Shown: positions 8,497 to 30,832 of the stretch, piece by piece
Numbering within the stretch: position 1 is the first letter of the stretch
How the letters are laid out: each line of letters opens with the position of its first letter
Assembly (NCBI GenBank): GCA_040386275.1
Contig: JAZKFU010000005.1
Coordinates: 7,378 to 71,377 of the forward strand
Origin: Patescibacteria group bacterium
GTDB taxonomy: Bacteria > Patescibacteriota > Minisyncoccia > Phycocordibacterales > UBA918
DNA: 64,000 bases
Direction: 5' to 3'
Made by a program: the position numbers and the translations under genes
Notes under the pieces: generated by a model
What the model saw: the letters and a program-made list of their open reading frames with translations, nothing else
Databases searched by the model: none
What the model was told of the DNA's origin: nothing

Positions 8497-9882
8497 TTAT
8501 TTTAAGAGTAGTCGTACCTGAGTAATCTCTTCTTCTAGTTCGGCGTCTACTTTGAGGTCTCGTTTAATTTTTTCACAACTATGGATCACCGTGGTATGGT
8601 CTCTTCCTCCAAGTTTTTTACCAATGGCCGGGTACGATACCTGAAAATCTTCTCGTAAAATGTACATGATAATCTGTCTTGGCTTCACTACTTCTTTTCG
8701 ACGGGTCTTTTCGTAAATACTCGCTTGATCAATATCAAAGAAGCGTGCCACTTTATCAACTACATCAGAGACGGCTAGGGTTTTTCGGGGTCGACTACTG
8801 TTTTTAATAATCGCCTTTACCTCCTCGATAGTAAGGGTTCGTCCCAATAGTTGTGATTGGCACATAATGGTATTAAGAGCCCCTTCGAGTTCCCGGATGT
8901 TGCCTTCAATAGTTTGAGCGAGGTGTTCAACTACATCGTCAGCCAGAGAAATACTATTTTGCGCAGCTTTGGCGCGTAAAATAGCCGCTCGTGATTCTGT
9001 GTCGGGAGCAGGAATATCAACAATCATCCCCTGTCCAAACCGTGATCGTAACCGATCTTCCATACCAGCAAGTAACGCTGGGTGCATGTCACTTGAAAAC
9101 ACAATTTGCTTATTGGTGTCATGGAGCGCATTAAAGAGGTGAAATAATTCTTCTTGTGTCTTTTCTTTGGTGGCTAAGAACTGGACGTCGTCCATAATCA
9201 GAACATCATACTGGCGGTATTTGTCTTTAAAATTATTAGCAGTTCCACTTTGCAGCGCATTAAAGTAATCCACGGCAAACCGTTCACTGGTGACATAAAA
9301 CACCTTCTTACCAGTCTTTTTTACCTGATTACCTACCGCTTGAATGAGGTGAGTCTTACCGTGACCGGTTTTACCATAAATAAATAGTGGATTATACGCA
9401 ATTCCCGGCTTTTCACTCACAGTTTTAGCAGCTGCGTGCGCAAGCGCGTTGTAAGGGCCTACCACAAAGTTTTCAAAAGAATATTTTGGGTTAAGGTTAT
9501 CACTTTTATTGATGTAGTAATCCTCAAGCGGGAGAGCGGCATTAATGGTTTGAGTTTTATTGGTCTCCCCTCTTCTATCGCTCCGTTGTAGTACGGCGTA
9601 TTCAATACTCCGTACATAGGGAGTAATTTCACGCAGGGTTTTTAAAATCATTGACTGAAATTTATCAGCCAGCCAGTCCCGAACAAAAATACTCGGTACC
9701 CCAATAGTGAGGGTGCCGTCCTCAAGCGAAACAATGTGCGTGTCGCGAAACCAAGTCTTAAAGTTAGCAGGAGTGATTGATAGTTCAATCTTAACCAAGG
9801 CATTATCCCACAGACTTTTAACATCAATTTGCTCAGTTCGAACAATGCTATTGCTTTGATGTTGGTGTGTTACAGGAGGCAT
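8497..9882 (-). CDS. dnaA: Chromosomal replication initiator DnaA
   Basis: Walker A GKTGHGKTHL, AAA+ sensor motifs, C-terminal DNA-binding domain, 461 aa. Confidence 0.97.
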   Translation of the reverse strand: MPPVTHQHQSNSIVRTEQIDVKSLWDNALVKIELSITPANFKTWFRDTHIVSLEDGTLTIGVPSIFVRDWLADKFQSMILKTLREITPYVRSIEYAVLQRSDRRGETNKTQTINAALPLEDYYINKSDNLNPKYSFENFVVGPYNALAHAAAKTVSEKPGIAYNPLFIYGKTGHGKTHLIQAVGNQVKKTGKKVFYVTSERFAVDYFNALQSGTANNFKDKYRQYDVLIMDDVQFLATKEKTQEELFHLFNALHDTNKQIVFSSDMHPALLAGMEDRLRSRFGQGMIVDIPAPDTESRAAILRAKAAQNSISLADDVVEHLAQTIEGNIRELEGALNTIMCQSQLLGRTLTIEEVKAIIKNSSRPRKTLAVSDVVDKVARFFDIDQASIYEKTRRKEVVKPRQIIMYILREDFQVSYPAIGKKLGGRDHTTVIHSCEKIKRDLKVDAELEEEITQVRLLLK

Positions 9883-9995: not shown

Positions 9996-10015
9996 TGTGG
10001 ATAACCTGTGGACAA
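9996..10015. promoter_or_regulatory. Two adjacent DnaA boxes (TGTGGATAA, TGTGGACAA) in the dnaA-rpmH intergenic region
   Basis: Exact reverse complement of consensus TTATCCACA plus a 1-mismatch copy 2 bp away. Confidence 0.65.
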
Positions 10016-10466: not shown

Positions 10467-10793
10467 ATGTTCAAAAAATCCGAACGTATCACCCGTACCG
10501 CTTTTACACAATACTTTAAAATTGGCCGTCGGTTCCATACTGATTTCTTTACGCTTATTTACTCCCCCGCCCCGGTGCGGGGAGTGGCGGTGGTGGTTGG
10601 AAAAAAAGTATTTAAAGAGGCAGTTGATCGGAATACGTTACGTAGACGGGTCTATGCGGCGGCACGCACTTCACTTCAAACGAGTACTGGTATCTATCTG
10701 ATTATCGCCAAGCCGACTGCTAAAAATCTGAATCAAAAAGACGTAGCTCCGGCAATAGCAGAGCTTCTCGCCACCGCGTTAAAAGCAAGGTAG
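10467..10793 (+). CDS. rnpA: Ribonuclease P protein component
   Basis: 108 aa basic protein downstream of rpmH, RnpA-like. Confidence 0.85.
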   Translation: MFKKSERITRTAFTQYFKIGRRFHTDFFTLIYSPAPVRGVAVVVGKKVFKEAVDRNTLRRRVYAAARTSLQTSTGIYLIIAKPTAKNLNQKDVAPAIAELLATALKAR

Positions 10794-10805: not shown

Positions 10806-11540
10806 ATGTTTAGTTATATTTGGCACACGATTTTTTTTGACCCGGTCTATAACGGACTGGTGTTTTTTATTGATGTAATGCCCCGAGGAGACGTGGGGTT
10901 AGCGATTATTGCCATCGTTATTTTGGTAAAGTTTTGTCTCCTTCCTTTGTCTATAAAGGCGGTCAAGACACAAAAAATTATGAAGGAACTTGAGCCAAAG
11001 CTCAAGGAACTCAAAGAAAAATTTAAAGACAAGCGGGAGGAACAAGCGAAGGCCATGATGGAATTATACAAAGAAGCGGGCATGAATCCGTTTGCTAGTA
11101 TTTTACTTTTGTTTATTCAAATCCCGTTTATCATTGCCATTTACTTCGCGGTGTCTAAGGGTGGAGGCGTTCCTCTACCGGGCATTAATACAGATATCCT
11201 CTATTCTTTTATTCCCAATCCGGTCATGGTTTCGATGGAATTTTTTGGCAGTATTGATATTACGCAAAAGAGTATGGCGCTCGCATTGCTCGCGGGTATT
11301 ACTCAATTTTTTAGTACCAAACTCTCAATGGCTTCGATGCCGTTAAAAGAGAAAGATAAAGATGCGGCCCCAAGTCTAAAAGATGATTTTGCTCGCAATA
11401 TGCAGTTTCAAATGAAATACGTTATGCCTGTTTTTATTATCTTCATCGCCTACAGCTTCTCTGCTACCATCGCCCTATATTTTGTAGTCAGTAACCTAGT
11501 CCAAATCGCTCAAGAGTTCTACGTACGAAAGCACCGGTAA
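10806..11540 (+). CDS. yidC: Membrane protein insertase YidC/Oxa1 (short form)
   Basis: Multi-TM, coiled KELEPKLKELKEKFKDKREEQAKAMMELYKEAGMNP motif typical of YidC. Confidence 0.88.
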   Translation: MFSYIWHTIFFDPVYNGLVFFIDVMPRGDVGLAIIAIVILVKFCLLPLSIKAVKTQKIMKELEPKLKELKEKFKDKREEQAKAMMELYKEAGMNPFASILLLFIQIPFIIAIYFAVSKGGGVPLPGINTDILYSFIPNPVMVSMEFFGSIDITQKSMALALLAGITQFFSTKLSMASMPLKEKDKDAAPSLKDDFARNMQFQMKYVMPVFIIFIAYSFSATIALYFVVSNLVQIAQEFYVRKHR

Positions 11541-11552: not shown

Positions 11553-12629
11553 TTATAGAATCGGATCGACGTAACCTTCAGGTACACATCCACGAGTGGA
11601 ATCCCATTGTGTAGTCGGGTCTGCATCGCACGCTACCCGGGCAGCTTCTTCCGCAGCTTCTTCCGCAGCTTCTGCTTCGGCAGCAAGGTCTCGAGGTATT
11701 GAACAAGTAACAGTGGTATCTGTAGCAGCAGTTACATACCCAGATCTATCGTAACAATCATCTCGAGCAGATTGGCAAAAGCCCCCTTGATTTATTGCGG
11801 CACCACCTCCTCTACCTCCACCACCACTAGTAGCTCCGGTACAGGTAATAGATTCTGTAGCACCATTTCTCACTAAGCACGTCTGGCCGTTACTGGTATA
11901 CACACCATTTATCCCACTACACGCTCCTGGGCAGGTATTGTAATCAGCACCATACACTTCACAACTTAGAACCGAACATTGCTGGCTATTTCCACCGCAC
12001 GAACTTCCTACCATAAGTTCAGCCAGGCGTTCATTACTTACGGCACATCGTATGGCTCCATTAGCTGTTTCTCGGAACACAAAACCATCTGCATTATTAC
12101 AATCATCCTGGCAAGAGGCGCCAGACCCGCCGGGTAAAAATTCACTTATGCCCGGCAATCGGTTCTGGCTATCAGTACATACTTGAATAGTACAGGTGCT
12201 ATTATCTGTTCCACAAAGTCTTCGTAATTCACCCTCAGGGCCAGTTAGAGGACGATCGTTAATGGGGAGAGTTTCAAGATCAAAATTTACATTCGTTAAG
12301 TCAGTGTTAATAGTATTAAGAATTACAATAGCACCGATGACAATTAAAAGTCCAATTAAAGCCCCTTGGATATCTTTTTTGGCTTCTTCTTTGGCTGGCA
12401 CTATGTCGGTGAGCATGTATTTTGCTCCCGCGGCGATAATTTTAATTACCGCAAGCAAAGCTGCAATACTAATAGAGAGTCTATAGAGGGCGTTAATATA
12501 TTGATTTAAACCACCTCCTACTACATCTACCCCCGGTATACCCACCAACATTCTAAATTCAGCTGCAAAAAGAGCACTTGGTGTTAAAAATCCGATTATC
12601 AGTAAGGAAATAAATAGTTTAGATTTCAT
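11553..12629 (-). CDS. VirB2/TrbC-like pilin domain fused to a C-terminal Cys-rich (about 22 Cys) extracellular domain
   Basis: Signal peptide MKSKLFISLLIIGFLTPSALFA, two hydrophobic helices separated by a short loop, then a Cys/Gly-rich 240-aa domain; start overlaps upstream gene stop (ATGAAATCTAA). Confidence 0.5.
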   Translation of the reverse strand: MKSKLFISLLIIGFLTPSALFAAEFRMLVGIPGVDVVGGGLNQYINALYRLSISIAALLAVIKIIAAGAKYMLTDIVPAKEEAKKDIQGALIGLLIVIGAIVILNTINTDLTNVNFDLETLPINDRPLTGPEGELRRLCGTDNSTCTIQVCTDSQNRLPGISEFLPGGSGASCQDDCNNADGFVFRETANGAIRCAVSNERLAELMVGSSCGGNSQQCSVLSCEVYGADYNTCPGACSGINGVYTSNGQTCLVRNGATESITCTGATSGGGGRGGGAAINQGGFCQSARDDCYDRSGYVTAATDTTVTCSIPRDLAAEAEAAEEAAEEAARVACDADPTTQWDSTRGCVPEGYVDPIL

Positions 12630-13797
12630 ACATCCAAAGTGTATTATCAGTTTTATTTGTAAAGTATAACACCCCGCCGTCACTACTGGTCTGCATAGTT
12701 GTAACGTCAATTGCTCTCCCTACGACTGATTCAGGGTTAATCAATTGTGAGGCGCTACCTTTAGATGCATCTATTCTCCATAGTTGATCAGAGTAGGAAC
12801 GAATTCCTTTATACCAATCGTCGGGAAATTCAGAACCATATGTTTCCTGGGTTGATCCACAGTAGAATATATTTAATTCAGTTTTTGAAAAGGCACATTT
12901 GTTTGGGTCTATAGTTGAAGCCAGGGTGCTGCTTGTTTTTTTGTCTACGGAATACGCCTGACTTGCAGGGCCGTTTCCTGTTTGTTTTGAAAAAATTACA
13001 TAATCACTATTGGCAAAGCTGGTTAATCCCCTCCCCTCAATTGGTAAGCGGTTAACAGTACCTCCTACAAAAGAATAGAGAAAACCGGTTAATTTTGCCG
13101 AGGCTTTTGGATATACATAATGTGGTGTTGTGGTAGTCATGCTCCATATAAAAGTTGCACTTTGAAATGGTACTGAAAAAAGTGTACGTATAGTTTTTGT
13201 AGTCGGGTTGAGTTCCTTTCCGGTTAAACCAACAGAACTAAATTCAGAATAAAGAAGTTGATTATTATCATTAAAATTAAAATCAACCATTTTGGGAATC
13301 AGGGTTACTTTAGTGGCGCTATTTTCTCCGGCTAGAGTTAAAAGTTCAACCGTGTTTTGAGCGCCATAACCTGATCGAATCGCAACGTATTCCCCGTTAG
13401 GGCTAAATTTTGCTAATTGAGGATTTGTAATTGTTATGTTTGAGAGACGGATTTCCGTTCCGGTCACAAGATCAATAGAAAAAACATGCCCAGTCCCCGC
13501 TTCGGCATACAACATTAATTGTTCATTATTAGTAATGCTTATTTTTTCTCCAAATCCAATGGTAGGTTTAAGGGTCAATTGTCTGAGCTGTACTAGATCA
13601 TCGACATCAACTTGACCATTGGTTACTTCGGGTATAAATGGTGTAAGGGGTGTAATATCAGAGTTTTCCGCAAAACTAAAATCAGTAAAAAATTGTTCAA
13701 TTGGTTTTGGTGTTCCATAAATAAGGAGGTATAACCAAATAGCTACTAGTAGTAGTATAGCGGATACTCCAGCGATAATAAGTAGTGTTTTATTCAT
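12619..13797 (-). CDS. Membrane-anchored secreted protein (possible beta-propeller), T4SS-cluster member
   Basis: N-terminal TM MNKTLLIIAGVSAILLLVAIWLYLL, operon context with VirB4/VirB6-like genes. Confidence 0.55.
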   Translation of the reverse strand: MNKTLLIIAGVSAILLLVAIWLYLLIYGTPKPIEQFFTDFSFAENSDITPLTPFIPEVTNGQVDVDDLVQLRQLTLKPTIGFGEKISITNNEQLMLYAEAGTGHVFSIDLVTGTEIRLSNITITNPQLAKFSPNGEYVAIRSGYGAQNTVELLTLAGENSATKVTLIPKMVDFNFNDNNQLLYSEFSSVGLTGKELNPTTKTIRTLFSVPFQSATFIWSMTTTTPHYVYPKASAKLTGFLYSFVGGTVNRLPIEGRGLTSFANSDYVIFSKQTGNGPASQAYSVDKKTSSTLASTIDPNKCAFSKTELNIFYCGSTQETYGSEFPDDWYKGIRSYSDQLWRIDASKGSASQLINPESVVGRAIDVTTMQTSSDGGVLYFTNKTDNTLWMYEI

Positions 13798-13798
13798 A

Positions 13799-14773
13799 TT
13801 AAAGCTTCACCTGGAATGAACTTTCATCACTTTGTAAAAGTTCTGAAAGGTTTCGAATTTTAAAACCAACACGGGCACTTCCGGCCGCTCCCCGTTCCAG
13901 GTTAATTTCGAATGGGTCAAAGTTGTTTGTTGGTGTTGGCCTGTTATTTATGCTCCACTCAGTAAAAAGATTGCCATTAATTGCTCTGGTGTCGAGGTAA
14001 TATGGTGCCGCTTTAATAGATGCGCTGTTACCAGTGAGAATAAACTCACTGGAAATTGCTTTTTGACCCAAACCAAGCAGGCTATTCATTTCGTAAAATT
14101 GCACATCAAGCTTAGCGGTTGGAATAGAAACTAACTTCCGAGCGACGGTGGTGTTATTTTTATCTTGTACGGAAATGGTGACGACACTCGTTTCACCATG
14201 CGGAACAACAATTTGTGCCCAATTCCCCCCTAGTCTCCCTCCTCCGTATACTGAATCGTTATTTAAGCTCCAAACATAGATGTAATTAGCACTATTAATT
14301 GGACCGTTTATATTTTGAAGCAGCGCATTAATATTAATGATGCTCCCTTTGGTAGGTAAAGCTCTTCCTTGATAAAAAACAGGAGTATAGGTTTGAGGTT
14401 CAACAATAAGGTCGAGGTAAAGGGGCGAGAGAATTCTTTTCGCTTCAATTTTTTGTCCGTTTGGATAAGTCAGACGGGCTATAACTGACATGGATTTACC
14501 AATCGCTGGTGCGGTAAAAGTAATTTTACGGAGGTTAGTAACCGCTGGAGCACTGAGTCCATCAAAATACCAAGTAATTGTTGCTCCGCTTCCGTTGAGA
14601 GCATAATCATCAAGGGTGGCAGTGACTTGTTCGTCAGGATTAGGAAATTGAGGATTAAGAATAATACTCACGTTTTCACCTGTTATTTCTGCAATACTGC
14701 TCCCCACTTGAGCACATAAGATAGTTGTCGGCGTCGCGAGCAATAAAAAAAATATAATAGCAATCAATCGCAT
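13799..14773 (-). CDS. Secreted hypothetical protein (start moved to MRLIAIIFFLLL signal peptide)
   Basis: Signal peptide; the longer ORF would overlap the upstream gene by 82 nt. Confidence 0.5.
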   Translation of the reverse strand: MRLIAIIFFLLLATPTTILCAQVGSSIAEITGENVSIILNPQFPNPDEQVTATLDDYALNGSGATITWYFDGLSAPAVTNLRKITFTAPAIGKSMSVIARLTYPNGQKIEAKRILSPLYLDLIVEPQTYTPVFYQGRALPTKGSIININALLQNINGPINSANYIYVWSLNNDSVYGGGRLGGNWAQIVVPHGETSVVTISVQDKNNTTVARKLVSIPTAKLDVQFYEMNSLLGLGQKAISSEFILTGNSASIKAAPYYLDTRAINGNLFTEWSINNRPTPTNNFDPFEINLERGAAGSARVGFKIRNLSELLQSDESSFQVKL

Positions 14774-14820
14774 ATCCCTATTGTACCAAAGTGTTTTCCC
14801 TAAATGACGAGGAAGTTCAC

Positions 14821-15591
14821 TTATTTTGGATAAGCGGCCACTGCCCACGCCCAAATAGCCGTCATGGGCACAATGGGTAAAAAGCAACTTATAATCGCAC
14901 AAAGGAAGAGACCAGTTTTTAAAGTGGTAGCGTTACCAAATAATGGATGAAGTCGCATTATTTTGGCACCTAGTAGTGCGCCGAGTAAAAGTACTCCCCC
15001 TATAATGGCAAGTAAGGCAAAGGCCGCGCTTGCCAGTGCACTCAAATCGGAATACTCAAACCCTACTACCCAACCCACATTTTGCACCACTTTGTCAGCG
15101 GCCCAGGCCAGCCAGGATTCTTCAACTTGGGTCGACATACCTAAAAGAATTCCCCCAATAGACGCAAGTAATATCTGTATGGGCCAGAGCGTAAACGCAA
15201 TGCTGGCGACAATGCCACCAAACGATACTCCGCGAGCTCGTGCGAGGATGGTAATTTTTGGTTTATTGGCGTCGAGCGCAGTATCGTTGCTTGCCATTAT
15301 TTGTTGTTCTTCTCTGTAGTAGCGCTGATCCACACGTTCATTGCGTGGACTGATCTCAGTTTCCTTTAAAGATTCATTTCGGCCTTGGTAACGTCGGGCA
15401 GTTGTACGTTTACGCCGTCCATCTTCACTAGGTCGTGAAGTAAGGGTTCTCGGTTGATTCCCATTTTCTATTCGTGAATTTTGTATACCTGAGTCATTTT
15501 CCGAGGAGTTTCTAAAGCGCAGGTTGGGATTATTATAACCTTCTTCAAATTCCGAGGCTATATCACGTTGTTTGGGGCCAAAAGTTGCCAT
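14821..15591 (-). CDS. Integral membrane protein with long hydrophilic N-terminus, T4SS-cluster member
   Basis: C-terminal multi-TM region; tightly packed in operon upstream of the VirB4-like gene. Confidence 0.5.
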   Translation of the reverse strand: MATFGPKQRDIASEFEEGYNNPNLRFRNSSENDSGIQNSRIENGNQPRTLTSRPSEDGRRKRTTARRYQGRNESLKETEISPRNERVDQRYYREEQQIMASNDTALDANKPKITILARARGVSFGGIVASIAFTLWPIQILLASIGGILLGMSTQVEESWLAWAADKVVQNVGWVVGFEYSDLSALASAAFALLAIIGGVLLLGALLGAKIMRLHPLFGNATTLKTGLFLCAIISCFLPIVPMTAIWAWAVAAYPK

Positions 15592-15606
15592 ATACTGCTA
15601 AGTATA

Positions 15607-17403
15607 CTACAACTGACTCTCGTTTAATTCCTTGCGCGCATTTTTGATTTGGAGAATTTGAGAAGGGTCCGAGGTGATGATTTGATCTTCCGTGTATGAA
15701 GCAATCACTTTAATAGCGACGTGTTTTAACCCGACGAAGAATAAGCCCTCCCCCACATCTGATTCCAGTAACAAGAACTTTTCTTCATCTGTTAAGTTAA
15801 ACGTGCGTTGAATGTTATCAATGGCGGTAGGTGATTGTTTCATTAAAAATTGAAGCGACGAGTTTGTAATCATCGGTACCCCGTACGGTGAGCGTAAAAA
15901 GTCGTCCACGTCTTGCGTTATAGTAGCAATACCTAAAAAGTATTTTCGTCCTCGTTTAGCCAAACTAAACAAGAAAGAAGCAGTGTCTTCAGATTTCATC
16001 ATCCACCAGGCTTCATCAATCACCAGTAGTCGTTTAACCAAGCGACGACGAATAGCAGCCCAGATGTAGTTGGTCACGATAAACATGGCGATGGTTTTTA
16101 ATTCATCTTCCATGTCTCGGAGTGAAAACACCACAAATTTCTGTTGAATATCAACGTTGGTGGGGTGGTTCATAAAACCAGACCAAGTACCAGAGGTATA
16201 TTTTTGTAATCGACTAATTAACGAGGCGCTCCCATTCATTCCGGCAAGCACCATTTCAAAGTCCGAGAGTAGTGGCGGTTCAAGATCTTTAAAGTTACTT
16301 TGTTCGGTAATATCCTTTAAGGCGTAGGTTTCGCGAATCGCTAAGTCAATAATTGTCTCTTCTTCAGGCGCTAGTCCGCCTAACATTAATTTAAAAAGTC
16401 CAATTAAATGAACGATCTGTGATCGCAGTACGTCAGCTGGTTCCTCGTCATCTCCTGGAGGTGGTAGATCAAAGGGGTTAATGTGGTGTTTTGAAGAAAG
16501 TGAAATATTAAAAAATCGTCCGCCGGTGGCTTCTGCTAAGTACTCGTATTCACGCTCCGGGTCAATCACGATTACCTCTGACCCAAACATAAGGGATCGG
16601 AGAATTTCTAACTTAATACTGTATGACTTCCCGGCTCCCGAGGTCGCAAAGGTAACAGAGTTGTAGTTCGTTAATCCAAAACGATCAAATAATACCAATG
16701 ATGAGTTGTGGCGATTGATACCATATAAAATTCCCGTGTCTGAAGTGAGGTCAAACGAAGTAAACGGAAAGAAGCTAGAAAGTGGTGAGGAGTTAAATTT
16801 ACTGTGGGTCATTAACTCATCGGTTCCGGTTGGAATAATACTTTGCAGTCCGGGTTCTTGGCGGAAGAGGGCGGGTTTGATGTAAATGAGTTTAGAGTCA
16901 AGGATACCTTTAATGTCATTTTCGACTTTATTTAGTTTGGCGTCGTCTTCTCCATAAACCGCAATGTATAGCCCGACATCAAATAACTTTTCTTCGGCTT
17001 GTTGGAGCTTGTCGCGCAAATCCTCAAGGTTACGATAGGCCGCTTCAAGTTGCGGGTCACGCACTTCCCCGCGCTCGGCACGAATATTAATTTGACTCTG
17101 TACCTCCGCTACTTTTTTCTGAAATTTCTTTAAAGTTTCGGCAGTACTAATCGGGTGAATCACAATGGTCACATCGAGTTCCTTTTCCATGTTGAGTACT
17201 GGTTCAAGCCAGCCGTCATTTAAAAAGCGGGGGTAGGATACTGCATAAAATACGCGGGCGGAGGTACCGCTAATATTAATACTGCCGGGTTTGATACTAA
17301 CAGCCGAAGGAGCGATAACGTCAGCCAGCGTTAAAAGACTTTCACTAATCGCGATTTGATTTTCATCTAATTTTTTTGGTCGTAGATTATCGAGAAGTCC
17401 CAT
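15607..17403 (-). CDS. virB4: VirB4/TrbE/CagE-family type IV secretion ATPase, C-terminal 598-aa part
   Basis: Walker A FATSGAGKS, Walker B LLVIDEAWWMM, CagE/TrbE-family conservation throughout. Confidence 0.9.
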   Translation of the reverse strand: MGLLDNLRPKKLDENQIAISESLLTLADVIAPSAVSIKPGSINISGTSARVFYAVSYPRFLNDGWLEPVLNMEKELDVTIVIHPISTAETLKKFQKKVAEVQSQINIRAERGEVRDPQLEAAYRNLEDLRDKLQQAEEKLFDVGLYIAVYGEDDAKLNKVENDIKGILDSKLIYIKPALFRQEPGLQSIIPTGTDELMTHSKFNSSPLSSFFPFTSFDLTSDTGILYGINRHNSSLVLFDRFGLTNYNSVTFATSGAGKSYSIKLEILRSLMFGSEVIVIDPEREYEYLAEATGGRFFNISLSSKHHINPFDLPPPGDDEEPADVLRSQIVHLIGLFKLMLGGLAPEEETIIDLAIRETYALKDITEQSNFKDLEPPLLSDFEMVLAGMNGSASLISRLQKYTSGTWSGFMNHPTNVDIQQKFVVFSLRDMEDELKTIAMFIVTNYIWAAIRRRLVKRLLVIDEAWWMMKSEDTASFLFSLAKRGRKYFLGIATITQDVDDFLRSPYGVPMITNSSLQFLMKQSPTAIDNIQRTFNLTDEEKFLLLESDVGEGLFFVGLKHVAIKVIASYTEDQIITSDPSQILQIKNARKELNESQL

Positions 17404-17408
17404 AGTTG

Positions 17409-18041
17409 TTATTGTATCGTAGGAGCGGAGCCAGTGATATCACCGGGGTTGTATATGTGATAAAACAGCTCAACTAATTCGTCTGTTTGAAGTGCAATCG
17501 TACGAACTCCCATGCGATTAAGTCCTTGTTCCACCACCGCTTGGCGTTGCTCAAGTTGGAGTCGCTGTTCTTCTAGAGTAGCTTCGTTTTGTAACCCGGC
17601 CCGGCCTTGGTTTAAAATGCCTTTAAAACCTTGTGTAATATTAATTTTGTTTGGCGTATACGGCACAATCACAAAAAAGTTTTTACTCATCACATCAACT
17701 TCAACGGTAAAACTGCGAATAAATTCAATATATTCGCGTAACTGGACGCGCATTAAATCATTATCCTGACTCCCCTGCCGTTCGGCGAGCATGGCTAGAT
17801 ATGGTTCGATGTTTAATCGACGTGACTGCACGTAAATTTGTAGAGAAAAATCGATAGTATTAAGAAAGTTTTGAAATTGAAACAAGATGGCACGTTGTTC
17901 ATCTTGTGATTTGAGTGCAAAGTTAACTGACGAAGCTAACAGTACTTTACAAATCTGGCCAGATTTTAATATCACAATGCCGTCGCGAATGTCGCGAATT
18001 GAAACAAAGTCTTGAGTTGCTGCAGAAGTATTGGTAGCCAT
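17409..18041 (-). CDS. VirB4/PrgJ N-terminal domain (210 aa), separated from the ATPase part by TAA plus 5 nt (frame change)
   Basis: DFVSIRDIRDGIVILKSGQICKVLLASSVNFALKSQDEQ pattern matches VirB4 N-terminus; 210+598 aa is about full-length VirB4. Confidence 0.65.
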   Translation of the reverse strand: MATNTSAATQDFVSIRDIRDGIVILKSGQICKVLLASSVNFALKSQDEQRAILFQFQNFLNTIDFSLQIYVQSRRLNIEPYLAMLAERQGSQDNDLMRVQLREYIEFIRSFTVEVDVMSKNFFVIVPYTPNKINITQGFKGILNQGRAGLQNEATLEEQRLQLEQRQAVVEQGLNRMGVRTIALQTDELVELFYHIYNPGDITGSAPTIQ

Positions 18042-18047
18042 ATAGTA

Positions 18048-18467
18048 TTAATCCTTTTTTTCCATGGCTTTAAGTTCCAAACGGCGCGCCAAAGACGTAA
18101 TATCCTTTTTTTGGTTATGGGTCGGATTCATCATAATAGGATTACGAATAGTCGTGGTGGGCGTAAAAGTTTCTTTATGAACAATTTCTCGTGTTTGTTG
18201 CCATAGATAGAGCCGTTTCCGACGATAGTGGTTATACATCGCCTCCAGAAAGTGAGAAAAGGGACGATTGTTAACGGGGTAAAACGCTAAAGCGGCGGTA
18301 AAAAGTCCAATTAAAAATGCCGGAATAATAGCGAGGAAAAACGGTAATGTTAAGAGTAACACCACGACCATTCCCCCACCGCCACCCAAATACAAAAATT
18401 GCCGCCACGTAAATGGACCTACAATCTTGTCTTCTATTTCGATGAACTGCGGGACTTCAAACTGCAT
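18048..18467 (-). CDS. Small two-TM membrane protein, VirB3/PrgI-like
   Basis: 139 aa, hydrophobic core GGGGGMVVVLLLTLPFFLAIIPAFLIGLF, immediately upstream of VirB4 as in monoderm T4SS loci. Confidence 0.5.
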   Translation of the reverse strand: MQFEVPQFIEIEDKIVGPFTWRQFLYLGGGGGMVVVLLLTLPFFLAIIPAFLIGLFTAALAFYPVNNRPFSHFLEAMYNHYRRKRLYLWQQTREIVHKETFTPTTTIRNPIMMNPTHNQKKDITSLARRLELKAMEKKD

Positions 18468-18526
18468 GCGATTATTATACAGTATCGCTACTAATAGAGA
18501 GTCAGACTTTTACTCAGTGCTCGGTG

Positions 18527-19444
18527 TTAGCTCCAGCGAGATTCATCTGTATCAGGCTTTGCTGGTACTGGTTGTGTGTATGTCGGCACACCCACGGCAG
18601 TTCGTTCGAGGGTTGGCTGGGTCGATACGTAGATAGGTTCATCAATATTCGCTACTGCATTAAATGTAGTCCGGGCCGGTGATCGTTCCTGAGCCATATC
18701 CGACGCCATGGTTCGAATTTCTGGAATTGCAGACTGTTGTTCGAAATGTACTGGTGTAGAAGGTTCTAATGGGGACTGGGTACTATTAGATAGTGGTGGA
18801 TTAGAAGCTTCAAACTCCTCTTCCTCGTCATCTCCTGGTGGTTGCCAGTTAGGATCAGAAAGTGGTTTTAGAAACTCTTGTATATCAATCGCAATTTTTT
18901 CGGCTGTAGTGGTATCAAGTGCTAGTTCCTGCTGAAGAAGGGCTGCAGTATCTTCAATTTTATAAAAGCCCAGAGCAATATCTCCAATAACTATAAGAAA
19001 CTGTTTAAAGGAAACAACCTCAAAAAGATTGTTAGTAGTATAAATTTCAGCAACTTCAATTTTACACTTGGGAGCGTGAATAAAATAGGCTTTATGTGGA
19101 TCATGGTTCATTTGGTTAGTTCGTAATTCTGTAGAAATTTGCGGGGCAAGTGTTGTGTAGTCATTTTCAGTAAGAAAAAAATGAAAACAAAGCTCAGTGA
19201 CAGGCGTAATTAAACTGCTGTTTAAATTGTTTTTACTAATGTAACTTTCTAAATCATTTGATTCTGATAAATTCAAAACCGTGTTACTTATATGCAGTAC
19301 CAAATCACGAATAATTACACTAGTTAGTTTCCCCGCAAGTTTTTTTTGTAAATATTTCGAAATTATATTTGAATCAATAAAATTCTGCGTCTGAGGACTT
19401 GCTTGTCGGTAGGCTTCAATAAATTTTTCCCAATTGTAAAACAT
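18527..19444 (-). CDS. Hypothetical protein (acidic C-terminal tail), T4SS-cluster member
   Basis: 305-aa ORF in operon; no recognisable motif. Confidence 0.45.
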   Translation of the reverse strand: MFYNWEKFIEAYRQASPQTQNFIDSNIISKYLQKKLAGKLTSVIIRDLVLHISNTVLNLSESNDLESYISKNNLNSSLITPVTELCFHFFLTENDYTTLAPQISTELRTNQMNHDPHKAYFIHAPKCKIEVAEIYTTNNLFEVVSFKQFLIVIGDIALGFYKIEDTAALLQQELALDTTTAEKIAIDIQEFLKPLSDPNWQPPGDDEEEEFEASNPPLSNSTQSPLEPSTPVHFEQQSAIPEIRTMASDMAQERSPARTTFNAVANIDEPIYVSTQPTLERTAVGVPTYTQPVPAKPDTDESRWS

Positions 19445-19447
19445 ATT

Positions 19448-21649
19448 TTAAGCAAAGTTTATACCTAACTGCGCGCCATACACGGTATTGTCAGACCATT
19501 TACGCCACATTTTAAGCGAAGAAGGATTGGCAGAGGTAGCATGAATAACATTAGCTTCAATATTGTTTCGTATTTCTTCCAATTGTGATGAGTTGATAGC
19601 ACCAGTTTTCATTTTTTCTTCTACCATTTGTGGTGTTAAGTACTGTGCCATTGCTGGCTTTGTAAACACCTCGGTCGGCATTTTAGCAATATCTTGAACA
19701 CTTCGGTTCATAAGTTTTTGTCTTTGTTTGCTTGTAACGGTAGTAGAAGAAGCTGCTGAAGGAATGGATCCAGACGTTATGCTATGACCAGTTGCGGCAA
19801 TATTAGTAAAGGCATTAGTACGGGAGGCTTTAATTTCTGAAATCTCTTGTCTTGAGAATTTACCTGACTTTTCCAATGATTCGATGTGACCGTCAGTTAA
19901 ATGAGCTGCAATTTGAGTACTTTTAAGTTTGTTTATACCCAAATCAGTGCGCTGTTCATCACTCATCTCTTTAATAGTTTTGCCAAGTGTTTCAAAGGCT
20001 GAGTTCAATTCATCAGCAGTGGCTGATGTTTTAGCGAGAGTAGAGTCGGCATTTTTAAATGAGTTTACCCGTTCAATATCATCTCCTTTACGTTCATCAG
20101 CTCTGCGAGTTTGGTCTGCTCTAGCACTAATTCCAGCAGCATATTTTCTTTGCTCTTTATTTGAGCCAACTGTTCCTAATTTTGCATTACTAGCTGATTC
20201 AGCTGCGCCCCGTAAAGCACGATCAACTGTATTAGTGCTTGCTAATTTTCCTAATACACCCCCTCTCGCCTGGAGCCTGTTAAGACCACGCTCTGACATT
20301 TCTCCCGCCTTATTTACAGCCATCCGTGTACCAGCACGTGGCATGTAGGTAATGGCATTTTTAGCTCGACCAGTAATATTTTTTCCAAATGATGCAGTCA
20401 TCGTGGCACCGTGTGCGCCCATTTTTTTAGCTACCACAATAGAGGCTACTAAAAAGACAATCACCATCGCAAAAAATGGAATGGTTGGATCAATCGCAGA
20501 AGTGCTACCGGCAAATCCACCTTGAGAACCGTCTTGCGTTGTGCCAAACACGTAGGCAAAACTTCTTTGACTTGAAGGAAAGGACGAGGCAACTCTATAG
20601 GATAGATAGAGCATAAACATAAACGCTGGTGCAAAAAATGCTTGGCGGAGGAATCCACTCCAGTAGTCACGGGAATAATGTTGAAGGGCAGGAAATACCC
20701 ACCCAAGAAACATAAAAGGTGAAAAAACCATATAGATACACAATACGACGAATCGAATCATTATCATTAACGCGCCCGCTAAAAATACGTATCCTAAAAC
20801 CAATAGTACTATTGCCAGACCGACAACATATTGATATCCACCTTCAGTTTGAATATACGAAACTCCCAAAATCTCATTAATACCCATTAAATTTTTGAAC
20901 GATTCCGTTAGACTAAAAACTCCCGGACTAGTGCCCGCAAAAGCCGTATATATTTGATACGCAGCTATATTAGAAAAATCAACGACAAATTTAGTTATAA
21001 ATAAACTAAAGTTTACCAAGAGAGCTGCTCCTATTAAAGACACGAGCATTTTTCGAGCACTACTGTCACTACTGTCTAAAATCATTTTAAACCCGATATA
21101 CACGAGTCCAAAAATAAACGTTAGATTAAAAATATCGCGAACAGTGGTCCATAAGTTGTCTATGTTTTGACCGATATTTTGATTCAAATACAATTCCCCA
21201 AAACCGATAATAAAATTATTTACGGAGTAGTCAAACATGTACCCTATCTGACCTACCACCCACCCTAAGCCGGTGACAAAGATGGCGTGTAGTAGTAAAA
21301 GTACAGGGTCACTCGTTCCTCCTGTTTGCACTAAGGGTACCGGTTCTGTTTGATTTGCACTCCCCGAATAATCGTCACCATAAGGCACATTTCCTGCTCC
21401 AGTTCCGCCTGTGGCCCCACCACCTGTGCCGGCACCGGGTCCGTTACCTCCAACTGGAAATGTTCCAGGTCCTCCAACAGGTATTGGTGGAGGATTAGCT
21501 GCACCGCCTGAATCAGCTCCTCCGCCTTGAGCAAGTACCTGAGCAAAACTGCTTAAGAAGAGTGTACTTAATATTAAGAGTAAAAAGACAAAGGAAATAC
21601 CCCGTTTACCTAATTTATCTCCACTGAAAATACCGACCAAATAAGTCAT
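19448..21649 (-). CDS. Polytopic membrane protein, VirB6/TrbL-like, with Gly-rich N-terminus and long C-terminal hydrophilic extension
   Basis: Signal/TM, GGxG-rich segment, 6-7 TM helices, 733 aa; architecture of VirB6/TrbL. Confidence 0.5.
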   Translation of the reverse strand: MTYLVGIFSGDKLGKRGISFVFLLLILSTLFLSSFAQVLAQGGGADSGGAANPPPIPVGGPGTFPVGGNGPGAGTGGGATGGTGAGNVPYGDDYSGSANQTEPVPLVQTGGTSDPVLLLLHAIFVTGLGWVVGQIGYMFDYSVNNFIIGFGELYLNQNIGQNIDNLWTTVRDIFNLTFIFGLVYIGFKMILDSSDSSARKMLVSLIGAALLVNFSLFITKFVVDFSNIAAYQIYTAFAGTSPGVFSLTESFKNLMGINEILGVSYIQTEGGYQYVVGLAIVLLVLGYVFLAGALMIMIRFVVLCIYMVFSPFMFLGWVFPALQHYSRDYWSGFLRQAFFAPAFMFMLYLSYRVASSFPSSQRSFAYVFGTTQDGSQGGFAGSTSAIDPTIPFFAMVIVFLVASIVVAKKMGAHGATMTASFGKNITGRAKNAITYMPRAGTRMAVNKAGEMSERGLNRLQARGGVLGKLASTNTVDRALRGAAESASNAKLGTVGSNKEQRKYAAGISARADQTRRADERKGDDIERVNSFKNADSTLAKTSATADELNSAFETLGKTIKEMSDEQRTDLGINKLKSTQIAAHLTDGHIESLEKSGKFSRQEISEIKASRTNAFTNIAATGHSITSGSIPSAASSTTVTSKQRQKLMNRSVQDIAKMPTEVFTKPAMAQYLTPQMVEEKMKTGAINSSQLEEIRNNIEANVIHATSANPSSLKMWRKWSDNTVYGAQLGINFA

Positions 21650-21701
21650 TACATTAATATTCTAGCACTGCTACCGCTTCGTTTACCTAGGTTAACCACT
21701 A

Positions 21702-23390
21702 CTAAAGGTTAAGTGCTTGTCGCCAACGGGTACGATTCTGGTCTATGGTTAATTGAGTGGTAAGAGTGCCTCCAGTGACCAATGTAGAGTATTCTAATGC
21801 CACATCATTTCGTATTGAGGTAGGTGATGATGTTGAAGCACTTGAGCCAATAACCGGCACGTCAGCATTGTTGTACCTCGAAATTAAGCTAGTAAGTCTA
21901 GAAACATTGGCGGTAGTTCTTGGAACAATCACATTGAGTTCTGAAACAAGGGTTGTAAGTTGGGTAACCACCCGTGCTCCTTCTGCTTCAAGTCTGGTAA
22001 AGGTAAAGGTTGGTAACGTTGTGGCAAGCGTTCTGTCGTCAGACATGGTAGCGATGACACTTAAAGCATTGCTAATAGTGTCTAATTGAGTTTGTACTAC
22101 GGTTAGGTCGGCTCGCTCTTGAGTAGTGGGGCTATCACTAAGGGCCGTGGAAACCTTACTACGAGCGCTCGTGAGGGTGTCTGAGCGGGTGATGTTGGCG
22201 AGGTTGGTGCCGGGGTTACCAGCAGCAAATAAGTTGGTAATGGCACTTTGACTGGCTGCTACCAGGCTTAATCTTCGGCTGGCTTCACTTAAGGTGCCCG
22301 AAGTCAGAGTGAGATAAGACTGTTCGGTTGTAAGAGAAGTTTGCATTTGTGACAGAGTGGCACTAGTGTTTAGTGATCCCTGGTCAACCATATCATCAAG
22401 GTAGGCACGAGTGCTTGATCCATTCAAACTGTAATCAGTATACCCAGTACCCTCACTTAGTCCCAACAGACCATTAATTCCCTCCATGGCAGCGGTTACG
22501 AGTTGATTTAACAGTGCGCCAATAAGTTCGTTAATTTCGTCTGCTTCAATAAGAGAGCGTGGTCCGGTTGAAAGTTGAAAGGTTAGTGCTTCAGAAATTA
22601 CTTGTCCCGGGGTTGAAATAGTACAGTTTTCTCGACCGCCACTACCTTCAATAGTCTCACATATTTTTTTTGATAAAAAACCATCTCCCCAGCTCGCCAC
22701 CTCAATTTCCTGGCCAGCTTCATTTTTTAATTTAATATTAAGTCGAGCCTGCGCTTCAAGGTAGGCCCCATAGGGAGTGTTTTGTGGACTACTCGTAACA
22801 TCTAGCCACTCTCCCCACCCTCCATCAGAAACTCCCGCAAAAAAACCTTCAATATTATTGGCTATATCAGAGAGTCTACAAGCGGGTGCGGTTGGTCCTG
22901 AGGGCATTCCACTGCGTGCTTGAGCGTAGGAAACGCTCAAAGCAGCTTGCACATCCAATCGAAACGGCGAACAAATAAATTCACCAATTCCACCGAGACT
23001 TCTTATATATTCTCCAGCTGCAGTATCCAAGGCATCAAGTAAAAAAGCGTTTAAATCGGTAATAAACGCGGGACTACCTTCAAAGCCCGAGTTAATCCAG
23101 TTAATCAAACTGCGAGTCATGCTACTGACCATTTGTTTGGCAATGGCCCAGCCAATTCCGTCAAGAACAGTTTCTTTTAATACTAAGCTATTAACACCAA
23201 CCGCCGTAGCTGCGTTTGATAATGCCGATGATGCTAATTCCGCTTGTTGGACAATCTGCATTCCTAATGTCGCTCCCCCGCCTGCTCCTCCCGCTTCTGC
23301 TTTATGGGTCGGTACCGAAACAGCAAAGACAGTCATGAGCAAGAAGCATGACAATGCAAGGACAGAATATTTTTTAAGGCGGTAATACAT
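21702..23390 (-). CDS. Large secreted protein (562 aa) with Ser/Thr-rich C-terminus
   Basis: Signal peptide MYYRLKKYSVLALSCFLLMTVFAVSVPTHKAEA. Confidence 0.55.
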   Translation of the reverse strand: MYYRLKKYSVLALSCFLLMTVFAVSVPTHKAEAGGAGGGATLGMQIVQQAELASSALSNAATAVGVNSLVLKETVLDGIGWAIAKQMVSSMTRSLINWINSGFEGSPAFITDLNAFLLDALDTAAGEYIRSLGGIGEFICSPFRLDVQAALSVSYAQARSGMPSGPTAPACRLSDIANNIEGFFAGVSDGGWGEWLDVTSSPQNTPYGAYLEAQARLNIKLKNEAGQEIEVASWGDGFLSKKICETIEGSGGRENCTISTPGQVISEALTFQLSTGPRSLIEADEINELIGALLNQLVTAAMEGINGLLGLSEGTGYTDYSLNGSSTRAYLDDMVDQGSLNTSATLSQMQTSLTTEQSYLTLTSGTLSEASRRLSLVAASQSAITNLFAAGNPGTNLANITRSDTLTSARSKVSTALSDSPTTQERADLTVVQTQLDTISNALSVIATMSDDRTLATTLPTFTFTRLEAEGARVVTQLTTLVSELNVIVPRTTANVSRLTSLISRYNNADVPVIGSSASTSSPTSIRNDVALEYSTLVTGGTLTTQLTIDQNRTRWRQALNL

Positions 23391-23391
23391 A

Positions 23392-24288
23392 TTAATATTT
23401 AGGGCTAAAGGCTAAGAACACAAAGGCAGGGTCCCTTTCGGTAAATAAACGTACATGTGGCATAAAGGCGCTGTACATATTTTGCAAGGCAATCCCAAGA
23501 CCCTTGGTATCGTCTTGGTACCGTCGCACTCGTAATAACGCCACTACCGGATCGTCGTACACGAGTTTAAGTCCACTCAAGGTGGAATACATAGCTTGAT
23601 AGACATTGATCAAATCAAGATGCTGTTTTTCAAACCCCGTAGGCACTGGAGTGGCGAGCGTTTGATCACGGAGGTTTTTATACATCGTGATGAGCGGGTC
23701 TAGTTTCTTTAGTTCTTCTGGGTTTTCGGTTTGCAAAGCCCGTTCAATAATCGCCAGGTCGCTATCTCCCTTTACGTTATTATTGATAATAATTTGACCT
23801 AATGTGTTTGCGTACGTTCTTATAGCTTCGTCATTGGTACCAATAACTTGAATTTGATTAAGTTTAAAAATATAGTCGTTCATGGCGGTGCTACGAAGCA
23901 TTTCCGCGGTATCGGCTACTACTTGTTGCGGATTTGGGCCAACATTACCTCGGCCTTTAGCCTGCAGTACATTTTGAAATAGTTGAATCCCCACTTGATC
24001 CGTCAGTGAGGTTGGTGGTGTGTATTGTACTGGTCCTGCTACATCTGAATTATCAATAATTATAGGCGTATTATTAACAAATTCCTCTCGCCAATCTTCA
24101 ATTCCATTATCGTCAGCGTCGATAACTGGAATGTAATTTCGGGCGGCAGCTGGACTAGCGCCTAATCCATACACCGGTTCATTTTGAGTATCAATCCGAG
24201 GAGCATTAAAGTTACTGATGGTATAGGCACCAGCAACCAGCGCAAAACCAACCACAAATGCGCCGAGAATTTTTGGATTATATGCCAT
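23392..24288 (-). CDS. Membrane-anchored extracytoplasmic protein (298 aa)
   Basis: N-terminal TM MAYNPKILGAFVVGFALVAGAY; 1-nt spacing to downstream gene. Confidence 0.5.
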   Translation of the reverse strand: MAYNPKILGAFVVGFALVAGAYTISNFNAPRIDTQNEPVYGLGASPAAARNYIPVIDADDNGIEDWREEFVNNTPIIIDNSDVAGPVQYTPPTSLTDQVGIQLFQNVLQAKGRGNVGPNPQQVVADTAEMLRSTAMNDYIFKLNQIQVIGTNDEAIRTYANTLGQIIINNNVKGDSDLAIIERALQTENPEELKKLDPLITMYKNLRDQTLATPVPTGFEKQHLDLINVYQAMYSTLSGLKLVYDDPVVALLRVRRYQDDTKGLGIALQNMYSAFMPHVRLFTERDPAFVFLAFSPKY

Positions 24289-24359: not shown

Positions 24360-25250
24360 TTACTCTGTCGATAACACTTGCGTAAGGTTGGGTATATGGA
24401 TGAGATGTTTAGTTAATGAAAGCCATGTGGGGAGCGGTAGGGTTTCGGCGCGGGCGTCTAGTCGTATTTTGAGGGTGGTAAAAAGTTGCTCAAGGGTACC
24501 CCGGTCGTAGCGATGAGAAAAATTAGACAGTAATTGCTTACGTTTTTGACCAAAACCCAGATGCAGGAGTTCAAAAAACAGCTGTTGTTCCGCGACCGAA
24601 GCAAAATTATTGGTGGTAATGTCGCTCACTCGTAAAATTGCCGAATCAACCTTCGGTTTTGGGTTAAAATGGCCTCGCGTAACGGTTTTTATGTACTTAG
24701 GGACGCCAAAAGCCTGTACCGACAGTGATAAAATAGACGATTTACTCGCTCTGGCAATCCGCTCCACTACCTCTTTTTGCATTAAAAACACTAATTGGGA
24801 GGGTTGAATCGGGTTTTCAAGGAAGGTTCGCAATAAAAACCCCGATAAATAGTACGGAATATTAGCCACTACTTTAAATTGCTGGTGTGTAAGACCTAAA
24901 TCACTCACCGAAAGCTCCCGGGCATCAAAATGTATTAGGGTTAGCTGTTTTGAGGTTATGTAGTCTTTAAATACATCTTCTAAAATAACTACCGCCCGAT
25001 TATCAGCTTCTAAGGCTATTACGTTTGCTCCCGTTGCCAACAGCGACTTAGTTAAGGCTCCTGTTCCAGGGCCAATTTCTATCACGGTATCGTTACGCGT
25101 TACTTCCCCAGCTTCGGTGAGCCATTTGGGCACTACATCGCTCGTAAGAAAATTTTGCCCGAGGGATTTTTTATGCAAAAATTTCTCCACCCCCTCCCCC
25201 TCTTCTGTATGTCCATAATGAGTACGCTTCATATACCCCCGAGCATACAT
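24360..25250 (-). CDS. rsmA: 16S rRNA (adenine1518/1519-N6)-dimethyltransferase RsmA/KsgA
   Basis: LGQNFL motif and SAM-binding EIGPGTGALT. Confidence 0.9.
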   Translation of the reverse strand: MYARGYMKRTHYGHTEEGEGVEKFLHKKSLGQNFLTSDVVPKWLTEAGEVTRNDTVIEIGPGTGALTKSLLATGANVIALEADNRAVVILEDVFKDYITSKQLTLIHFDARELSVSDLGLTHQQFKVVANIPYYLSGFLLRTFLENPIQPSQLVFLMQKEVVERIARASKSSILSLSVQAFGVPKYIKTVTRGHFNPKPKVDSAILRVSDITTNNFASVAEQQLFFELLHLGFGQKRKQLLSNFSHRYDRGTLEQLFTTLKIRLDARAETLPLPTWLSLTKHLIHIPNLTQVLSTE

Positions 25251-27481: not shown

Positions 27482-27799
27482 AACGGTGACACTATACCAT
27501 ACCTGGTAAAAAAACCATTAATTAGATTTAATAAAGTGTCAATAGAATAAAAACAGTTATTTTTATACCTATTTCGACCCTTCCCTCCCTCGACTGGGGA
27601 AAGTGCATTACGTCAATTGTACTTACGGAAGACTCTAGTAGAATTAGCGCATTACCAACGTGTGGTAACGGCAGAAGAGCCTTTGGCTCTTTTTGTTTCG
27701 ACAAAATTTCCTGTAGCGGTTGTACGGCGGCGTGTCCATAACTTAACAACTATTCAACCAACTCCACCAAAGTCCAAAACAATTCTCGTACTTGACCGT

Positions 27800-29183: not shown

Positions 29184-29738
29184 ATGAAATTGCAGAACAA
29201 TGGTTTTACTTTACTGGAATTGCTAGTTGTTCTGACTATAATTGGAATGCTGGCTTCAATTGTGATTGCAAGTATTAGTGAGGCGCGCGAGAAAGGTCGC
29301 ATTGCAAAAGCACAGGCTGAACTGAACCAGTTATCGATAGCTATGGAACTACTCTTCAATGACACTGGATATTATCCATCTGGTGAACCAAACGTTACTA
29401 CGGTATGTGCCCGTACAATAGCGACAAATGAAATTCGTGCATCCTACCCACGTGCGGGACTTGTCTCCAATGGTCAAAGTTGGACTACCTGGAATGGACC
29501 ATACATTCGAATCGGGGACGACCCTTGGGGCACACCGTATTTTTTTGACAGCGATTACGAGTGTTCTCCTGAAGTGCTTGGTTGTAATGGTATCAATGAC
29601 AACGGGCAGCTTATCTCCTCGGTAATTATAAGTTGTGGCCCGAATAGAGACCTCACGGGTAGTGACGCGTCTGGAAATCTTCAGTGTGACAGTGATAGTG
29701 ATAATATTGTGTTTCGAATCTGCCGTAATGGTTACTAA
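29184..29738 (+). CDS. Type IV pilin / pseudopilin (prepilin-type N-terminal cleavage/methylation domain)
   Basis: MKLQNNGFTLLELLVVLTIIGMLASIV class III signal; Cys pairs in C-terminal domain. Confidence 0.82.
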   Translation: MKLQNNGFTLLELLVVLTIIGMLASIVIASISEAREKGRIAKAQAELNQLSIAMELLFNDTGYYPSGEPNVTTVCARTIATNEIRASYPRAGLVSNGQSWTTWNGPYIRIGDDPWGTPYFFDSDYECSPEVLGCNGINDNGQLISSVIISCGPNRDLTGSDASGNLQCDSDSDNIVFRICRNGY

Positions 29739-30822: not shown

Positions 30823-30832
30823 ACATTAACAA

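Follow-up and report, generated by a model that had tools for sequence, protein, structure and literature searches.

A cluster of 11 tightly packed minus-strand genes lies at positions 11553-24288, between yidC and ksgA, in a 64,000-nucleotide stretch (the window) of contig JAZKFU010000005.1 from a Patescibacteria group bacterium (assembly GCA_040386275.1). The cluster very probably encodes a resident, vertically inherited type IV secretion system (T4SS) of an ultra-small, Kaiserbacteria-like member of the Paceibacteria, derived from single-membrane conjugation machinery of the mating-pair-formation (MPF) class MPF-FATA and no longer serving as a conjugation module. Type IV secretion homology was found in five of the 11 genes (VirB6/TrbL, PrgI/VirB3, TrsD, VirB4 ATPase and VirB2-like pilin), so that homology shows the presence of a motor, of membrane components and of a pilin. 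The remaining six genes (g1, g2, g4, g8, g9 and g10) code for lineage-specific proteins.

An earlier note, made from the sequence alone, had placed a type IV secretion-like cluster at exactly this position, its limits coinciding with those of the outer open reading frames (ORFs; minus strand, 11553-12710 and 23392-24288), and had taken it for a host-interaction apparatus rather than a conjugation module. That choice is supported here by the fixed position, the native guanine-plus-cytosine (GC) content, the conservation of VirB4 and the literature. Because its chromosomal position is conserved, its GC content native and its VirB4 very strongly conserved, the cluster is read as a resident cellular machine and not as a conjugative element.

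Conservation of the cluster

The ORFs of the window (all those judged to be genes and the remaining small ones) were scanned for Pfam families. A genome collection was scanned with VirB4, which yielded 80 related loci from metagenome-assembled genomes of Kaiserbacteria, Paceibacteria, Campbellbacteria, Zambryskiibacteria, Taylorbacteria and Nomurabacteria, and all genes of the window were compared with these loci by tblastn. In essentially every locus with enough flanking sequence the gene order was uvrD-ksgA-g1-g2-g3-(g4)-PrgI-TrsD-VirB4-(g8)-g9-g10/g11-yidC-rnpA-dnaA-dnaN, and this synteny across 80 genomes is far beyond chance. VirB4 was 66-92% identical across the same Paceibacteria genomes. 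The GC content was 0.421 in the cluster and 0.424 in its flanks, as against 0.366 in a true island within the same window. That island, an insertion into comM described below, bears the marks that are missing from the T4SS cluster: a recombinase, a deviating base composition and a presence or position that varies among relatives. The T4SS cluster has no adjoining recombinase; with its invariant position among relatives and its native GC content, this ruled out a mobile island or an integrative and conjugative element.

Among the ORFs scanned in the window there was no Pfam match to a relaxase, to a coupling protein of the VirD4, TraG or FtsK type or to VirB11, as the earlier note had reported. 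A relaxase, a type IV coupling protein (T4CP) and VirB11 were likewise absent from about 7 kb of sequence beyond the left end of the window and about 8 kb beyond its right end, where the precomputed Pfam annotations of near-identical contigs listed only housekeeping genes and a PilB-type ATPase. An adjacent relaxase/VirD4 and oriT had been named as the sign of a conjugative element; housekeeping genes were found on both sides instead.

The proteins of the region differ widely in their rate of change. The median identity to distant relatives was 69% for VirB4, 57% for DnaA, 53% for UvrD and 39% for DnaN, and it was 25-36% for the extracytoplasmic proteins g1, g2, g3, g9, g10 and the pilin. A strongly constrained motor combined with fast-evolving surface parts suggests a core machine whose exterior faces a changing partner.

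VirB4, TrsD and PrgI

The 598-aa product of g7 (15607-17403) is the C-terminal ATPase part of VirB4. It matched positions 178-733 of NCBIfam model NF045971 (VirB4-like, CD1110 family) with E=3e-108 and the TraG P-loop domain PF19044 with E=1e-25, and in its translation the Walker A (SGAGKS) and Walker B (LLVIDEAW) motifs are intact. The best 120 of 8000 matches to VirB4 were 81-100% identical, and all of their named sources were Patescibacteria, Paceibacteria, Kaiserbacteria or Parcubacteria. From these nearest relatives we infer that g7 belongs to the patescibacterial VirB4 clade.

The N-terminal domain of VirB4 is encoded as a gene of its own, the TrsD-like g6 (210 aa; 17409-18041), which covers positions 3-168 of NF045971 and also matched VirB4_plasma (4.8e-9) and TrsD/TraD NF041427 (E=7.6e-5). 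Since g6 and g7 occupy successive parts of one model, the two ORFs tile a single VirB4, which the earlier note had called split. TrsD and VirB4 are separate ORFs in 79 of the 80 related loci, with short gaps and in all three relative frames, so that the arrangement is the normal TrsD and VirB4 gene pair and its origin by frameshift or as a pseudogene was ruled out. This pair has been reported as the most abundant T4SS component in Patescibacteria (PMC12102498). The small membrane protein encoded by g5 (139 aa; 18048-18467), noted before as VirB3/PrgI-like, matched PF12666 (PrgI/VirB3) with E=6.7e-12 and is present in 78 of the 80 loci.

VirB6 and the pilin

The assignments of VirB3, VirB4, VirB6 and VirB2 in the earlier note all survived the profile searches, the last two by way of orthologues. 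The product of g3 (733 aa; 19448-21649) is an extended polytopic membrane protein of the VirB6/TrbL type; it has six transmembrane-like segments, and its C-terminal region, about 300 aa long, is hydrophilic. The window copy had no Pfam match of its own, and 12 of 59 orthologues matched TrbL/VirB6 (PF04610; best 2e-8). A profile of the orthologues gave a weak match to the membrane domain of R388 TrwI (7o3v_F; E=0.073). Its alignment with PrgH of pCF10 by hhalign (E=0.0036, probability 9%) was not significant.

The VirB2-like pilin is encoded by g11 (11553-12629; 358 aa from the likely start MKSKLF). The window copy matched the T4SS_pilin family PF18895 with E=1e-3, below the Pfam threshold, and the NCBIfam Mbov_0395 pilin with 2e-4; PF18895 was matched by 59 of 64 orthologues (best 7e-11) and TrbC/VirB2 by six. 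One pilin gene is present in most loci and two in a few. The pilin core, consisting of a signal peptide and two hydrophobic helices, occupies residues ~1-137 and is followed by a C-terminal tail of 222 aa with 18 cysteines (encoded at 11553-12218). About 52 of the 64 orthologues also carry tails, of 17-281 aa and mostly with even cysteine counts. The core is conserved, and the 47 tails of at least 60 aa fell into 40 BLAST clusters; even in a relative whose VirB4 is 92% identical the tail could not be aligned to that of the window. In single orthologues the place of the tail is taken by a VanY domain (5e-10) or by a weak CHAP match (0.002).

Accessory proteins

The earlier note had listed at least six secreted or membrane-anchored proteins with no recognisable domains. 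Signal or transmembrane segments were found in five of them (298, 562, 256, 367 and 392 aa), the 305-aa protein having no clear one, and two proved recognisable by profile, as a TolB-like propeller and an Ig-like protein. The folds suggested for three of them, VirB8-like for the 298-aa and VirB5- or VirB9-like for the 562- and 367-aa proteins, found no support, as set out below.

The 298-aa product of g1 (23392-24288) has a transmembrane-like segment at residues 7-25. Its AlphaFold2 (AF2) model, built from a 65-sequence alignment, had a predicted local distance difference test score (pLDDT) of 78 and helices over residues 95-295, that is, a membrane anchor followed by a probably extracytoplasmic all-helical bundle, which ruled out a VirB8-like (NTF2) fold. 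The model had no significant match in the PDB by Foldseek (best E=0.7), and none of 377 homologues carried a Pfam domain. The gene stands at the same position in 38 of the 80 loci.

The product of g2 (562 aa; 21702-23390) is secreted or anchored and consists of a conserved N-domain and a variable helical C-terminus. The N-domain contains the conserved motif WINSGFxGSPAF and four conserved cysteines, of which C244 is invariant and C140, C171 and C256 occur in at least 90% of the sequences. In the AF2 model the pLDDT of the N-domain was less than 50 and that of the C-terminal helical bundle more than 90. With the conserved domain modelled at low confidence and PDB matches confined to generic coiled coils, a VirB5- or VirB9-like identity found no support. 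The gene is present in 58 loci, and its family comprises 4807 cluster representatives (50% identity) at E<=1e-3, with no Pfam domain. Among ten long relatives tested, one ended in a beta-helix (E=3e-12) and one gave a sub-threshold pectate-lyase-like match (E=0.004). These are hints that the C-terminal end is modular and directed at the envelope.

Two of the genes are fast-evolving. The slot between VirB6 and PrgI is occupied by g4 (305 aa; 18527-19444). In each of the 63 loci where both neighbours are present, an iterated profile detected a g4 homologue at this place; profile searches revealed no Pfam or PDB relatives. The 256-aa product of g8 (14821-15591) has a polar low-complexity N-terminus followed by three to four C-terminal membrane helices, with transmembrane-like segments at residues 127-145, 189-207 and 228-246. 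For the g8 slot in 73 loci an iterated profile reached 55 ORFs (44 loci in the last round for which loci were counted); 17 of the 73 loci lacked an ORF of 50 aa or more at this place, and in about 14 the spacing was less than 100 nt. The g8 profile found no relatives in the PDB.

The secreted product of g9 (13799-14773; 324 aa from the likely start MRLIAIIFF within a 367-aa ORF) has a signal-like segment at residues 3-21 and tandem Ig-like domains. The profile of its orthologues matched the Ig-like phage decoration protein Hoc (3shs; E=1.6e-6) instead of VirB9, and the gene is present in 74 of the 80 loci. The product of g10 (392 aa; 12619-13797), found in 68 loci, is anchored by a transmembrane segment at residues 4-22 and has a TolB-like beta-propeller, its orthologue profile matching that of TolB with E=1.4e-6; a few of the orthologues match PD40 or other beta-propeller Pfam families. 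Comparison of the accessory families by hhalign with PrgC, PrgD, PrgE, PrgF, PrgG, PrgK, PrgL, PrgM, PcfA and PcfB of pCF10 showed no homology.

No dedicated cell-wall hydrolase is encoded within 11553-24288. A peptidase gene (27617-28849, plus strand; Peptidase_M23 2.9e-29, LysM 1.4e-26) lies 3.3 kb upstream of the cluster, beyond ksgA and uvrD; in the 12 loci with flanking sequence long enough to include it, its relative position is the same. Its product is a candidate cell-wall hydrolase and VirB1 analogue.

Comparison with known systems

Both the system and its genomic setting are already published, and the locus, as one more instance, does not represent a new kind of system; T4SSs of this type, without a relaxase and close to the origin, were described in 2023-2025 (Wang et al. 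2023, PMC10633639; Quinonero-Coronel et al. 2025, PMC12102498). This system was reported in 2,417 of 3,035 Patescibacteria genomes; its VirB4 proteins form a monophyletic clade within MPF-FATA, its parts are TrsD, PrgI/VirB3, VirB6 and VirB2-like pilins, and relaxases are almost absent (only 109 in the 3,035 genomes) (PMC12102498). In Paceibacteria the neighbours of virB4 are dnaA, dnaN, rnpA, ksgA and rpmH; VirB1 homologues with LysM/M23 domains were described and, separately, an association of VirB1 homologues with virB4 in Paceibacteria (PMC12102498). The window agrees with this arrangement in its separate TrsD, in the PrgI/VirB3, VirB6 and VirB2-like pilin genes near virB4, in the lack of a nearby relaxase or T4CP, in the same five neighbouring genes and in the LysM/M23 hydrolase nearby. 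Nothing essential differs. The details added here are the TolB-like g10, the Ig-like g9, the helical bundle of g1, the large Pfam-less g2 family and the long hypervariable Cys-rich pilin tail, none of which was found described in that paper by keyword search of its text. Of these, only the hypervariable tail may be a new aspect, and it is reported descriptively.

In Southlakia epibionticum the T4SS cluster SEML1_0006-0019 was essential for epibiotic growth by transposon sequencing (PMC10633639). When the two were compared, as the earlier note had proposed for the essential T4SS of Saccharibacteria, the same VirB6-PrgI-TrsD-VirB4 order was found on one strand of strain ML1, again close to the origin and with PF18895 pilins. 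Neither a relaxase nor a T4CP belongs to that cluster, next to which an exported Ig-like (PEGA) protein, also essential, is encoded. Strain ML1 differs in its array of six small pilins (103-185 aa), as opposed to the one pilin of the window with its 222-aa Cys-rich tail, and in its two very large VirB6-like proteins. It also has a lysozyme-type VirB1 and an NTF2-like (VirB8-like) protein, whereas in the window no NTF2-like protein was detected and the accessory proteins are others.

With the MPF-FATA systems (pGO1/pSK41 Trs, pIP501 Tra, pCF10 Prg/Pcf and CTn2) the cluster shares a CD1110-family VirB4, PrgI, a VirB6-like polytopic protein, a separate TrsD as in the pGO1 subclass and a single-membrane architecture lacking VirB7, VirB9 and VirB10. 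It differs from them in being chromosomally fixed, with no T4CP, relaxase or oriT in the window or the extended flanks, and in having a VirB2-like pilin, which is absent from the Gram-positive systems, where surface adhesins are found. The likeness to Agrobacterium VirB and R388 Trw (MPF-T) lies in the VirB2-type pilin, VirB3, VirB4 and VirB6, the last with the weak TrwI profile match; VirB5, VirB7, VirB8, VirB9, VirB10, VirB11 and VirD4 of those systems were not detected, and the source bacterium is presumed to be single-membraned.

Proposed function and alternatives

In the machine proposed here VirB6 and PrgI would form the membrane translocon, on which the TrsD/VirB4 ATPase would dock to extract the membrane pilin and polymerise it into a pilus or tube. 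The pilin tail, g2, the Ig-like g9, the TolB-like g10 and the helical g1 would form or decorate the part that spans the cell wall and contacts the host, and the nearby LysM-M23 hydrolase, whose functional link to the cluster is predicted, may open the wall. The machine would serve attachment to a putative host cell and the exchange of macromolecules with it.

Several points weigh against this reading. The VirB6 and pilin identities of the window copies depend on orthologues and on sub-threshold matches, and the six accessory proteins have their proposed roles on the strength of position, topology and fold class. A VirB8-like protein was not detected, the hhalign comparisons of all accessory families with PrgL and PrgD being negative. 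The genes would form an operon as judged by their spacing, neighbours among the 11 genes overlapping by at most 11 nt and lying at most 59 nt apart; scans for promoters and terminators were uninformative, giving counts equal to the shuffled expectation and a best promoter-like site that overlaps the g1 start codon. VirD4-like genes occur elsewhere in most Patescibacteria genomes, the t4cp gene often being far from virB4 (PMC12102498), and a distant coupling protein is possible, about 80 kb of genome being covered here. The function of the T4SS has been called 'completely unknown' (PMC11665869), and reviews propose effector export or nucleic-acid import (PMC11665869, PMC12857230).

The same distant VirD4 homologues, together with the placing of VirB4 in the CD1110 conjugal-transfer family, would suit the mating-pair-formation half of a conjugative system whose coupling protein and relaxase are encoded elsewhere. 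This is very unlikely given the fixed position between core genes in 80 species, the native GC content, the lack of an integrase or relaxase, the scarcity of relaxases in the phylum and the finding that T4CP is non-essential in S. epibionticum, in which the other T4SS genes are essential (PMC12102498). Export of effectors, by which proteins would be injected into the host as by the T4SSs of pathogens, was the preferred reading of the earlier note; it has been speculated upon (PMC10633639, PMC11665869) and has T4CP-less precedents in the protein-secreting Ptl and Brucella VirB systems (PMC12102498). No candidate in the cluster has a recognisable toxic or enzymatic domain, however, and the six unknown families, being syntenic (five in most loci, g1 in 38 of 80), look more like structural parts than substrates, so that this reading is judged improbable. 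It is about equally doubtful that the VirB4/VirB3/VirB6 core has been kept for an adhesive VirB2-type pilus alone, with a variable tail that binds the host and with no substrate channel. Pilus biogenesis in Agrobacterium does not need VirD4, no T4CP lies near the cluster, and a conserved pilin core with a hypervariable Cys-rich tail is as expected of an adhesin. Pilins are also essential in S. epibionticum (PMC10633639). On the other side, type IV pili already provide adhesion in the phylum (PMC12857230), a type IV pilus pilin gene is present in the window, and the extreme conservation of VirB4 by itself does not separate a pilus-only machine from the other readings.

A feeding tube for the import of host RNA or DNA, or of other macromolecules, similar to uptake by ComB- or Ced-type systems, is possible and rather less doubtful than either of the latter two, while still falling short of probable. 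It is a sub-case of the resident T4SS preferred here and not its contradiction. Organisms of this class are known from the literature to lack nucleotide biosynthesis; in S. epibionticum comEC is dispensable and the T4SS essential (PMC11665869, PMC12857230); for a cultivated member of the Microgenomatia a preprint reports host-penetrating tubes, possibly T4SS pili, and the uptake of host RNA as food (bioRxiv 10.64898/2026.06.21.733656); and a polynucleotide phosphorylase gene is present in the window at 46117-48237. Against it, the link between T4SS and uptake is hypothetical for every Patescibacterium, and the sequence bears no mark of the direction of transport. In a bolder form of this idea the T4SS pilus itself would be the device of host specificity: the VirB2-like pilin would display, on the surface of the pilus, a fast-diversifying disulfide-rich C-terminal domain (with VanY or CHAP swaps in a few relatives), g2 would swap its C-terminal end (helical bundle for beta-helix or pectate-lyase-like), and with the TolB-like and Ig-like proteins they would make up a host-envelope-penetrating feeding tube for nucleic-acid import. 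This is put forward as a speculation and judged improbable; if true, the pilin architecture and accessory set would be undescribed for any T4SS.

The T4SS is thought to be central to the life of a very large fraction of uncultivated bacteria on other cells. The resident system described here is a clean, complete Paceibacteria example, and its six conserved partner families and hypervariable-tail pilin could guide structural and genetic work on cargo and host recognition.

Flanking genes and other features of the window

To the left of the cluster lie dnaN (7045-8139, minus strand), dnaA (8497-9882, minus strand), rpmH for L34 (10146-10301, plus strand), rnpA (10467-10793, plus strand) and yidC (10806-11540, plus strand), rpmH being identified from its translation and the others by Pfam. 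The right flank begins with ksgA/rsmA (24360-25250, minus strand), followed by uvrD/pcrA, the LysM-M23 peptidase gene and a type IV pilus-type pilin gene. The sole perfect DnaA box in the window, TTATCCACA, is at 9996-10004, with a one-mismatch box at 10007-10015. Because this box lies upstream of dnaA, it is reasonable to describe the cluster as next to the origin; over the whole window DnaA boxes were not enriched (16 found, 18 expected).

The gene for the pilin of the type IV pilus type (N_methyl and T2SSG; 29184-29738, plus strand) is at a distance of 5 kb from the cluster. A near-identical contig (L082, 4866-6596) encodes, just beyond the left end of the window and about 17 kb from the cluster, a PilB-like ATPase (T2SSE and MshEN), the sole T2SSE-family ATPase seen. 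From the location of these two genes it follows that type IV pilus genes are also present in the origin-proximal region.

The comM gene (Mg-chelatase-like, competence) is split into a C-terminal half at 29866-30462 and an N-terminal half at 42794-43744 by a 12.3-kb insert (30463-42793) with a GC content of 0.366, as against about 0.42. The insert codes for two serine recombinases, an AAA_25 ATPase, an HATPase_c_3 protein, a DUF5677 protein and a MutH/Sau3AI-like endonuclease, with which an adjoining C5 DNA methylase would pair as a restriction-modification system. The insert is a mobile element that has integrated here and carries neither relaxase nor T4SS genes; no convincing att-type direct repeats were found at its ends.

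The polynucleotide phosphorylase gene mentioned above is on the minus strand, and its product has two RNase_PH domains, a KH and an S1 domain. A 2026 preprint proposes the use of host RNA by means of this enzyme in the phylum and names the T4SS as a possible route of uptake (bioRxiv 10.64898/2026.06.21.733656). Between the phosphorylase gene and a DksA/TraR-type zinc-finger gene is a 611-aa ORF with no Pfam match (44163-45998, minus strand). Tandem paralogous 224-aa HTH_23 proteins are encoded at 62607-63281 and 63314-63988 (plus strand), with one copy only in a related assembly (L083). At 48388-50577 (minus strand) a gene for an NYN-domain nuclease is accompanied by a gene for a helix-turn-helix and SocA/Panacea antitoxin-like protein, and the two are possibly a toxin-antitoxin system or related to defence.

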